Shown piece by piece: positions 11,419 to 12,878 of a DNA stretch of 64,000 bases (position 1 is the stretch's first letter; every line of letters starts with the position of its first letter). A program made the translations under genes and the position numbers. This stretch comes from Flavobacterium sp. (GTDB lineage Bacteria > Bacteroidota > Bacteroidia > Flavobacteriales > Flavobacteriaceae): assembly GCA_039931915.1 (NCBI GenBank), contig JBDTRA010000005.1:16365-80364 (forward strand), read 5' to 3'. The notes below the pieces were generated by a model. The model was not told the origin of the DNA, searched no databases, and worked only from the letters and a program-made list of their open reading frames with translations.

Positions 11419-12406
11419 TGCCTGGGGAAGCCTGATTAAAGTACAGGACGGAGCAGGTAATACACTGGCAGGGTTGACAGTATTGGATCGTGGATATACG
11501 GGTCACGAACATTTGCAGAGTGTAAGTCTGATTAACATGAACGCAAGGCTGTATGACCCGATGCTTCATCGATTTTTAGGCATAGACAATTATATTCAGG
11601 ATCCTACTAATACCCAGAATTTTAATAATTATGGGTATGTGATGAACAACCCGTTATCAAATACTGACATTAGTGGGAATATTTGCGAAGGATGTGGAGG
11701 AATAAATGTAGGCCCTGGTGAAAATGGTACATCTACAGATTTAAAACAATTTGGTAAAGATACAGGTATAGACAAATGGATGGGAAAGAACCTAAACTTC
11801 AATAGTTGGAGCAGAAGTTTTAAGAAAATTTTCGGAGGAAGACATAGAGGAAATTCAGGGCCGCCTCCAAATGTGAGTAAGTATGTGAATTTGAATAAGG
11901 GTAATTTTTCAGGAGGTTCTTCATCAACAAACAGTATTCCCTCAACTTCCAATTTGCAAAATAACAATGACGTCATGAATTGGTTTAGCAAAGAAAGTGG
12001 TCCTTTATGGGATGTAGCAAACGATGCAGTAAATACAAAAGGTGTAGTTAAAATTTATACTCATGGTGGTAGTACTGGAATTGTTGGACCAGATACAAAT
12101 TGGATTAAAACTGCTGAAGATCTAAATATAGTTTTAATGAGAGGAAGTCCTTCTTGGAGAAATTTCAGAAAAAATGGCGGAAAATTAACATTAGTATTAA
12201 AAGCTTGTGGCACAGGAGCAAATGTAAATGATGGATTTGCAAAATTAATATCAAAATCATTCGAGGGCCTAAATGTAATCGGACCAACTAAATATTTCCA
12301 AGCAGAATCTTTTCTATGGTATAGTTGGGATAATGGAGTTAAGGATGGAGGAACTTGGAATCTGTATTACAATGGAGAATTAATTAATAGATTTAAAGGA
12401 AAATAA
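11381..12406 (+). CDS. C-terminal continuation of the Rhs protein in the +1 frame: Rhs core end plus variable toxin tail
   Basis: The frame is open from 11378. It reads LVLEKRLFDAWGSLIKVQDG..RGYTGHEHL..ARLYDPMLHRFLGIDNYIQDP..YVMNNPLSNTDISGN, which is the RHS-repeat-associated core end. A linker and a 175-aa tail of unrecognised family follow. Confidence 0.85.
   Translation: MRMQLVLEKRLFDAWGSLIKVQDGAGNTLAGLTVLDRGYTGHEHLQSVSLINMNARLYDPMLHRFLGIDNYIQDPTNTQNFNNYGYVMNNPLSNTDISGNICEGCGGINVGPGENGTSTDLKQFGKDTGIDKWMGKNLNFNSWSRSFKKIFGGRHRGNSGPPPNVSKYVNLNKGNFSGGSSSTNSIPSTSNLQNNNDVMNWFSKESGPLWDVANDAVNTKGVVKIYTHGGSTGIVGPDTNWIKTAEDLNIVLMRGSPSWRNFRKNGGKLTLVLKACGTGANVNDGFAKLISKSFEGLNVIGPTKYFQAESFLWYSWDNGVKDGGTWNLYYNGELINRFKGK
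11412..11885 (+). repeat. direct repeat copy 1 (Rhs core end plus pre-toxin linker) shared with the orphan cassette
   Basis: Near-identical by eye to 13010-13472, from tttgatgcctgggg through ccgcctcc(a/t)aatgtgagtaagtatg. There are a few substitutions and one 9-nt indel (RHRGNSGPPP vs RSSGPPP). Confidence 0.9.
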
Positions 12407-12410
12407 AAAA

Positions 12411-12878
12411 ATGAGTAAGCTAACAATAATACTATTACTTCTTTTAATCAGTTGTATTAAAACTGTAGATGGAGACTTATCGAAAGAAGAATTAATTGAC
12501 TTAAAACAGAACATATTTTATCATGGAGATAAATATTCATTTTCGAGATTAATTGCATACTATAGTGATAGAGACAATTATTACGAATTATTACCATATT
12601 CTTTTATAATGGCAGATAAATATAAAAATGGTGATGGATATTTTCAGGTCTATTATGATTTAATTAAAATTAATAACAATGGAAGATATGCAACAAATCT
12701 AATAGTTAACTTGAATCAAGACAATATAGAGTTTGTGCTTTCAAATTTAGAAAAAGGAGCCAAATTAAATGACACTGATTGCAAAGTTTTTTTAGCAAAA
12801 CATTATAAGAATGGATTTGGAATAATTAAAAACGAAAAAATAGCAGATAGCTTGATGAATAGTATAGAGTATAATTAA
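12411..12878 (+). CDS. candidate cognate immunity lipoprotein (Sel1/TPR-like)
   Basis: It begins 5 nt after the toxin stop. Lipobox LLLISC. GAKLNDTDCKVFLAKHYKNGFGIIKNEKIADSL resembles a Sel1 repeat. The call rests on position and size. Confidence 0.55.
   Translation: MSKLTIILLLLLISCIKTVDGDLSKEELIDLKQNIFYHGDKYSFSRLIAYYSDRDNYYELLPYSFIMADKYKNGDGYFQVYYDLIKINNNGRYATNLIVNLNQDNIEFVLSNLEKGAKLNDTDCKVFLAKHYKNGFGIIKNEKIADSLMNSIEYN

Follow-up and report, generated by a model that had tools for sequence, protein, structure and literature searches.

Caspase-like domains at the C-terminal ends of polymorphic toxins were predicted in Bacteroidetes by Zhang, Aravind et al. in 2012, including toxins that use a TcdB/TcaC-type route (PMC3482391). 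A second described group is linked to DUF4347, the domain of PA0256/Tce1 (PMC8262886). In a 2026 structural paper, Tce1 and Tce2 were described as putative cysteine proteases whose His and Cys residues superpose on the TcdB protease dyad, and the toxicity of Tce2 in yeast was lost with a C115S substitution (PMC13323088). Here, we analyzed the 3' end of an Rhs gene in a 64,000-nucleotide stretch of a Flavobacterium sp. genome (called the window below), where an earlier note, made from the sequence alone, had proposed a terminal toxin domain with a clan CD-like His/Cys dyad and a lipoprotein immunity candidate. We consider it probable that positions 11885-12878 hold a toxin-immunity cassette at the 3' end of this Rhs gene, in which a toxin with a clan CD-fold dyad is followed by a Sel1-repeat lipoprotein acting as its immunity protein. 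The features that carry this reading are as follows.

11948 to 12403, forward strand: toxin domain (amino acids ~190-341), a predicted caspase-fold, DUF4347-related Cys/His hydrolase domain, recognized from 70 relatives, a structure model, clan CD fold matches, and an hhalign comparison.
12062 to 12064, forward strand: codon of His228 (CAT), the predicted catalytic His, invariant in 71 of 71 copies and aligned with the His of the DUF4347 SHG motif.
12206 to 12208, forward strand: codon of Cys276 (TGT), the predicted catalytic nucleophile, invariant in 73 of 73 copies and aligned with the Cys of the DUF4347 YGC motif.
12411 to 12878, forward strand: candidate cognate immunity protein, a predicted 155-amino-acid lipoprotein with a Sel1-like repeat solenoid, recognized from conserved adjacency and from Sel1 profile and fold matches.

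A conserved His/Cys pair in the Rhs tail

His228 lies within GVVKIYTHGGS and Cys276 lies within KLTLVLKACGTGAN, and the two residues are 48 positions apart. HMMER, run exhaustively against 1.84 billion representative proteins, returned 70 relatives of the tail at an E value of ≤1e-3, 18 of them at ≤1e-10. In a 44-sequence alignment with a mean column identity of 12%, His228 and Cys276 were the only invariant columns. Among 75 domain instances, the same held for every copy that covered the respective column (71 for the His and 73 for the Cys); the residue following the His was Gly in 63 copies, Ala in 7, and Ser in 1, while the residue preceding the Cys was Ser in 38, Ala in 29, and Gly in 4. 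Judged by this conservation, the motif pair is real and is kept far beyond chance. The His/Cys pair with 48-residue spacing claimed in the earlier note was thus borne out both by a check of the sequence and by invariance in relatives. The tail, which that note had counted as 175 amino acids after NVSKY, is actually 173 amino acids long and starts at position 11885. Its first ~25 residues form a low-confidence spacer in the structure model (predicted local distance difference test score [pLDDT], 52 to 73), and the folded domain covers amino acids ~190-341.

Public records name proteins of this kind just "RHS repeat-associated core domain-containing protein" or "hypothetical protein." A protein search with the tail, within the length range of its open reading frame (ORF), returned solely the window's own protein, and looking up the exact sequence of P0007 gave no record. 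Searched against PDB sequences, a domain-only profile gave a chance-level match only, and the A1 profile matched only through the Rhs-core part of its alignment.

Predicted fold of the tail

The AlphaFold model of the tail, built on the family alignment, had a pLDDT of 90.0 and a predicted template modeling score of 0.83. In this model, the His follows a strand at residues 54-58 and the Cys follows a strand at residues 101-106 (tail numbering), in line with the previous proposal that each motif comes directly after a hydrophobic strand. When the model was compared to PDB with Foldseek, the Vibrio cholerae MARTX cysteine protease domain (3gcd) ranked first (E value, 7e-3; probability, 0.96) and Pseudomonas aeruginosa Tce1 in the Hcp3 complex (9qpe_G) ranked second (probability, 0.99; template modeling [TM] score, 0.44). 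Ranks 3 to 8 included a legumain-type asparaginyl endopeptidase, caspase-8, a C11 protease, and gingipain K, and CHAT of Craspase and a metacaspase were found at lower ranks. Clan CD proteins held most of the top ranks and the highest probabilities in this search, and a few Rossmann-like enzymes were scattered through the list. The structure search that the earlier note had called for on the tail therefore returned mainly clan CD proteases, and the caspase-fold reading given there is supported both by these matches, weak as their scores are, and by the DUF4347 profile link described below.

Thus, the last ~150 residues of the tail are predicted to form a compact alpha/beta domain with the fold of the caspase-haemoglobinase group (clan CD). 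The predicted catalytic dyad consists of His228 and Cys276, which the model places at the ends of two neighboring strands. In a fold search of a viral library, the best match was a fragment of a phage minor capsid protein (E value, 8e-5), and giant-virus caspases were also present; the capsid protein match is consistent with the MuF-type phage toxin fusions of Zhang et al. Other Cys-based families were also considered for the tail. A papain-like reading (Cys before His), NlpC/P60, sortase, LD-transpeptidase, and CX5R phosphatase were all dropped: the His comes before the Cys, 48 residues separate the two, no Arg follows the Cys, and the fold matches speak against these readings.

A profile-level link to DUF4347

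The family profile was compared to a DUF4347 profile built from genuine DUF4347 domains of other Flavobacteriaceae genomes, and hhalign gave a probability of 90.9% and an E value of 1.2e-6. The aligned columns place IYTHG on FSHG and LKAC on IYGC, so that His pairs with His and Cys pairs with Cys. The tail is a divergent relative of the DUF4347/Tce and cysteine protease domain (CPD)-like protease domains. The window tail itself had no match to Pfam DUF4347 (PF14252; gathering threshold, 24.6 bits) at E values up to 1, and 3 of the 44 aligned sequences matched DUF4347 weakly (E value, ≤0.01). A 3184-amino-acid protein (P0031), matched by the tail at an E value of 7e-8, scored 56.9 bits on DUF4347; it contains five repeats recognized by the family hidden Markov model, one of which covers its DUF4347 stretch. 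A second protein (P0044) had a DUF4347 match of 22.9 bits over the same region.

We also noted several related proteins outside the window. P0031 is a metagenomic protein in which all five caspase-like copies have the His and the Cys, and it also contains four PI3/PI4-kinase-like stretches (Pfam E value, 6.8e-54). Three loci in other Flavobacteriaceae genomes (L024, L025, and L026) have frames of ~340 to 360 amino acids with weak DUF4347 matches and the motifs IHIVSH(G/S)N and IIFHSCGLG. These frames are not attached to an Rhs tip, the N terminus of the one at L026 is lipoprotein-like, and together they seem to be a separate His/Cys subfamily. At another locus (L023, genome G063), an Rhs-tip protein ends in another DUF4347-like His/Cys domain (WGHG ... 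IGNCNSG). Since this tail differs from the one in the window, several caspase-like tail subfamilies circulate on Rhs carriers in Flavobacteriaceae.

The downstream partner is a Sel1-repeat lipoprotein

The ORF of the partner starts 4 nucleotides after the stop codon of the toxin, and its product has the N terminus MSKLTIILLLLLISC, with the lipobox Cys15 encoded at 12453-12455. This Cys is invariant in eight partner homologues, in which the lipobox variants are LISC, TSC, IGC, INC, and SSC, and the version found at the L014 locus has an apparent membrane anchor in place of the lipobox. Pfam Sel1 gave no match on the partner ORF. The partner family profile did match Sel1-repeat PDB chains (6ork; E value, 1.2e-6), and in the partner model (pLDDT, 92.3) eight helices are stacked into a solenoid, for which Sel1-repeat proteins were the best fold matches (probability, 1.0; TM scores, 0.55 to 0.66). 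The lipobox LLLISC and the Sel1-like repeat that had been proposed for this ORF by eye both held up, the former as a lipoprotein signal with an invariant Cys and the latter by the profile match and the modeled fold.

The partner ORF has few homologues. All four of the close homologues that were looked up sit immediately downstream of a protein ending in this toxin domain, and the carriers of those toxins vary, from SpvB/FG-GAP/RHS proteins of 2208 to 2268 amino acids to a 1175-amino-acid DUF6443 protein (Flavobacterium sangjuense) and an orphan fragment. The same partner family also follows toxins that are just 25 to 44% identical to the window tail, namely, those of an orphan cassette (L007), of Flavobacterium amniphilum (L009 and L010), of a Flavobacterium metagenome-assembled genome (MAG) (L011), and of gut Bacteroidales MAGs (L012 and L014). 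In total, of the 12 other loci examined, 10 have a member of the family as the next gene after the toxin. This pattern of co-inheritance is as expected for a cognate immunity protein, and we regard the partner as the probable cognate immunity protein because its homologues adjoin the toxin domain in these 10 loci on several carrier types. The toxin/immunity pairing put forward in the earlier note is supported by this adjacency; neutralization itself would presumably occur by binding.

Two members of the partner family differ in length. At 2222-3286 of the L012 locus (Candidatus Enterocola MAG), the partner is a 355-amino-acid frame with two tandem immunity-type modules. On another contig of the genome (C56, minus strand, ~27180-27567 in forward coordinates), an unlinked ORF encodes a ~127-amino-acid lipoprotein homologous to the N-terminal half of the immunity family (E value, 5e-11), with no Rhs gene nearby; this ORF may be an orphan immunity gene.

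Carrier gene and locus layout

The gene that carries the tail, along with its surroundings, is made up of the following features.

5262 to 5708, forward strand: small secreted protein of 148 amino acids with a type IX secretion system (T9SS) C-terminal sorting domain (Pfam Por_Secre_tail; E value, 7.5e-12).
5710 to 11418, forward strand: N-terminal Rhs carrier piece of 1902 amino acids, with a signal peptide, an SpvB N-terminal domain, an FG-GAP propeller, and a YD-repeat shell (Pfam SpvB and FG-GAP matches).
11378 to 11418: reading-frame change (+1) between the two Rhs gene pieces, seen from the ORF list and the sequence.
11417 to 11677, forward strand: RHS repeat-associated core, the shell end with the autoproteolysis region (TIGR03696; E value, 1.1e-14; amino acids 13-99 of the ORF at 11381..12406).
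11678 to 11947, forward strand: Cys/Gly-rich pretoxin linker, shared with the orphan cassette, and then a Ser/Asn-rich low-confidence spacer (direct repeat; model pLDDT).
13010 to 14519, forward strand: downstream orphan cassette with an Rhs core tip and linker, a different tail with weak ParB-like matches, and its own 148-amino-acid partner ORF (direct repeat; TIGR03696 and weak ParB_N matches).

By its SpvB, FG-GAP, and RHS parts, the carrier appears to be a TcB-TcC-like fusion of the Sec-exported polymorphic Rhs toxin type, and in the PDB search the Rhs-core part of the A1 profile matched chains of TcdB2-TccC3, YenC2, and teneurin. Full-frame homologues with the same tail have lengths of 2208, 2248, and 2268 amino acids. 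All of the carrier modules (SpvB, propeller, YD-repeat shell, and RHS-associated core) are present in the window, but they are split over two frames. The frame change is located just upstream of the repeat that is shared with the orphan cassette; the +1 frame is open from 11378 and the upstream ORF stops at 11418. The ORF at 11381..12406, which encodes 341 amino acids, is not a gene of its own but the C-terminal piece of a ~2240-amino-acid Rhs protein, because the 1902-amino-acid ORF stops at 11418 and the +1 frame continues with the Rhs core.

Four metagenome runs from the rhizosphere also yielded contigs that contain this stretch. Across 11378-11418, the X1 contig is the same as the window. 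In contrast, the X2 and X4 contigs are off by a single letter in length within this interval, and hence have an uninterrupted frame; otherwise they differ from the window by a few single-nucleotide polymorphisms (at least 99% alike). Alleles with an uninterrupted frame therefore occur in two closely related populations. X1 is perhaps the window's own source sample, in which case its contig lends no independent support to the break, which may be genuine or may stem from the assembly.

The locus contains a 300-nucleotide direct repeat, with 11414-11713 being 100% identical to 13010-13309, and the orphan cassette thereby supplies homology for tail exchange. The arrangement of core, linker, tail, and orphan cassette is that of a classic polymorphic toxin locus. 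A noncoding repeat of ~70 to 80 nucleotides is present in three copies (15038-15119, 16139-16220, and 17432-17500; 83 to 91% identical) between the downstream orphan cassettes. A promoter/terminator scan of 11300-13100 gave results no better than those for shuffled sequence. At the other end of the gene, the ORF for the 148-amino-acid T9SS-sorted protein ends immediately 5' of the Rhs start codon, and we suggest that its product is coupled to the Rhs protein and assists in exporting it or displaying it at the surface.

The genome carries a single copy of the caspase-like tail domain. It also has two further Rhs loci (contigs C26 and C14), which have long open frames of 2256 and 2126 amino acids and their own orphan core tips, so that the locus in the window is the sole frame-broken one of the three.

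Proposed mechanism and alternative functions

In the mechanism that we propose, the Rhs shell would enclose the tail, and the autoprotease of the Rhs core would free it by cutting just past the core motif. The tail would then be delivered to neighboring bacteria, where, as a cysteine endopeptidase, it would cleave a protein located outside the cytoplasm of the target. The membrane-anchored Sel1-repeat lipoprotein would bind and block the toxin in the envelope of the producer and its kin. Since the Sec signal would take the carrier through the producer's own periplasm, an envelope-anchored immunity protein would make sense both for self-protection during export and for the protection of kin. 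In this proposal, we infer that the chemistry is proteolysis, that the target lies in the periplasm or envelope, and that the role is antibacterial.

Several observations weigh against this reading. The tail has no match among the sequence models of Pfam, NCBIfam, PADLOC, or PDB, and the PDB fold scores are weak (best E value, 7e-3; TM scores, 0.39 to 0.44). An hhalign comparison to 13 Flavobacteriaceae Peptidase_C14 domains gave a probability of 1.4%, which is not significant, so the tie to caspases proper is at the fold level only. On the side of the partner, an unrelated 85-amino-acid ORF lies downstream of the toxin relative at one locus (L008), and at another (L013) the partner is membrane anchored and falls outside the 10 loci counted for the family. 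The carrier gene is frame-broken in the window. Finally, Tce1 and Tce2, the nearest characterized relatives, were nontoxic in Escherichia coli and have no immunity gene (PMC13323088).

The weak Foldseek E values, the Rossmann-like dehydrogenases dispersed in the hit list, and the lack of a significant sequence link to Peptidase_C14 or any PDB chain would also fit a generic three-layer alpha/beta domain that lacks the caspase fold and uses its His and Cys for metal binding or redox. We consider this very improbable, since clan CD proteins hold most of the top PDB fold ranks and the highest probabilities, the tail has the clan CD signature (His-then-Cys order, each residue at a strand end, 48-residue spacing, and small flanking residues), both dyad residues align in the DUF4347 homology, and the solved DUF4347 protein Tce1 was reported to be CPD-like (PMC13323088). 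A caspase-like fold could instead support a different chemistry, as an amidase, transpeptidase/ligase, or deamidase with peptidoglycan peptides, lipoprotein anchors, or another part of the envelope as its substrate. Some clan CD enzymes are transamidases or ligases (GPI8 and legumain-type ligases), the lipoprotein or membrane-anchored partner hints at an extracytoplasmic substrate, and the domain is much smaller than known protease domains (~150 versus ~200 or more amino acids), to which it compares at a TM score of ~0.4. However, every experimentally characterized relative in the fold search is a peptidase, and no similarity to known cell wall amidase families was found in the Pfam, NCBIfam, and Foldseek PDB searches, so that we regard another chemistry as unlikely. 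The tail could also be an anti-eukaryotic effector, like Tce2 or the host-directed toxins that bear a CPD, in which case the lipoprotein would have an accessory or export function and would not confer immunity. Tce2 showed toxicity in yeast but none in E. coli (PMC13323088), classic members of the TcB-TcC carrier type act on animal cells, and eukaryotes abound in the rhizosphere setting of this genome. We nevertheless think this role decidedly unlikely, given the tight one-to-one pairing of toxin and partner across different carriers and orphan cassettes and given that the downstream orphan toxin/partner arrays and the unlinked partner paralogue are hallmarks of interbacterial polymorphic toxin-immunity systems (PMC3482391).

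A further alternative concerns the state of the locus and not the identity of the domain. In this strain, the cassette may be decayed, with the tail unjoined to its carrier and undelivered and with only the immunity gene still useful, against the toxin of neighbors. The reading frame shifts by +1 before the Rhs core is reached, the X1 contig shows the same break, the other two Rhs loci of the genome keep long open frames, and further downstream in the window there are decayed toxin relics with intact partner ORFs. On the other hand, the X1 contig perhaps comes from the window's own source sample and would then add nothing independent to the case for decay, the X2 and X4 contigs have an uninterrupted frame, and the tail itself is without decay, with an open frame and all conserved positions kept. 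We take decay seriously without quite favoring it; because the carrier is frame-broken in this assembly, the toxin may be neither made nor delivered in this strain.

If the proposed endopeptidase toxin and lipoprotein immunity pair is correct, a protease module of the CPD/Tce type would be used against bacteria without a eukaryotic cofactor. It is possible, though we would not yet count on it, that the tail would be the first clan CD protease shown to act as an interbacterial toxin in the periplasm or envelope and to be neutralized by a Sel1-repeat lipoprotein. To our knowledge, no bacterial substrate is known for the caspase-fold domains of polymorphic toxins, which have been predicted since 2012, and their sole tested relatives, Tce1 and Tce2, look anti-eukaryotic and are without an immunity partner. 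A compact dyad domain of ~150 amino acids and a linked, confidently modeled immunity lipoprotein make a tractable pair, with which one could ask what a clan CD enzyme targets in the bacterial envelope, how it is kept silent inside the Rhs shell, and how a Sel1-repeat protein blocks it. The analysis also yields a sequence profile for a domain that is left unannotated in current databases.

Comparison with known systems

The tail resembles the self-processing Peptidase C80 domains found in MARTX and large clostridial toxins in that 3gcd is its best PDB fold match, in having its His and then its Cys ~45 to 50 residues apart after hydrophobic strands, and in a C-terminal beta-hairpin region after the core. 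The tail had no match to the Peptidase C80 sequence model in Pfam and PDB sequence searches. Peptidase C80 domains are internal and self-cutting and have a size of ~200 to 250 amino acids, whereas the domain in the window is ~150 amino acids long, stands last in its polypeptide, and has an immunity partner. C80 domains are activated by the eukaryotic cofactor inositol hexakisphosphate.

Sel1-repeat immunity proteins are known from type VI secretion systems (T6SS), where Tli5 acts against the PldA/PldB phospholipases of P. aeruginosa and where Sel1E of Klebsiella is another example. Like the partner in the window, these are small extracytoplasmic solenoids that are encoded beside a toxin and presumed to neutralize it by binding. 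They differ in acting against phospholipases or other nonprotease effectors, and we found no sequence relationship to them beyond the repeat type. The partner family here, unlike these T6SS proteins, has ~four helical hairpins and a lipobox.

The link to DUF4347 and the Tce effectors is one of profile-level homology, with Tce1 as the second-best structural match. The dyad order is the same and the spacing is similar (His186 and Cys240 in Tce1 and His65 and Cys115 in Tce2), and the tail and the Tce proteins are both secreted effectors. In contrast to Tce1 and Tce2, which are free-standing cargo in T6SS Hcp3 rings and have no immunity gene, the tail here belongs to an Rhs shell protein with a Sec signal peptide and is paired with a lipoprotein of its own. 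The genuine DUF4347 domains of Flavobacteriaceae differ as well, in that they sit in giant open frames of up to ~13,000 amino acids.

The Tox-Caspase class shares with this locus a caspase-like fold with a conserved His and Cys in the C-terminal-most position, an origin in Bacteroidetes, TcdB/TcaC-type carriers (SpvB, propeller, and RHS) with an adjacent immunity gene, and relatives that are fused to phage capsid-type proteins. Of the features of this class, we found the terminal position after the Rhs core, variable tails, and an orphan cassette, with the domain occurring on SpvB-RHS, DUF6443-RHS, and orphan tips. The class is defined by computation only, and no Pfam model of it detects the window tail. 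Its listed immunity proteins are Imm36 and Imm57, whereas the partner here is a Sel1-repeat lipoprotein, and lipoprotein immunity was described as exceptional (PMC3482391). Most Tox-Caspase members were said to be releasing peptidases (PMC3482391), while the domain in the window is terminal, with nothing downstream to release. The earlier note had called the tail a domain of an unrecognized family, which stands insofar as no current model detects it and fails insofar as Tox-Caspase was already described as a class of C-terminal toxins (PMC3482391). Thus, although the tail forms a distinct subfamily, undetected by any public model, the locus is a member of the predicted Tox-Caspase class and not a new kind of system.

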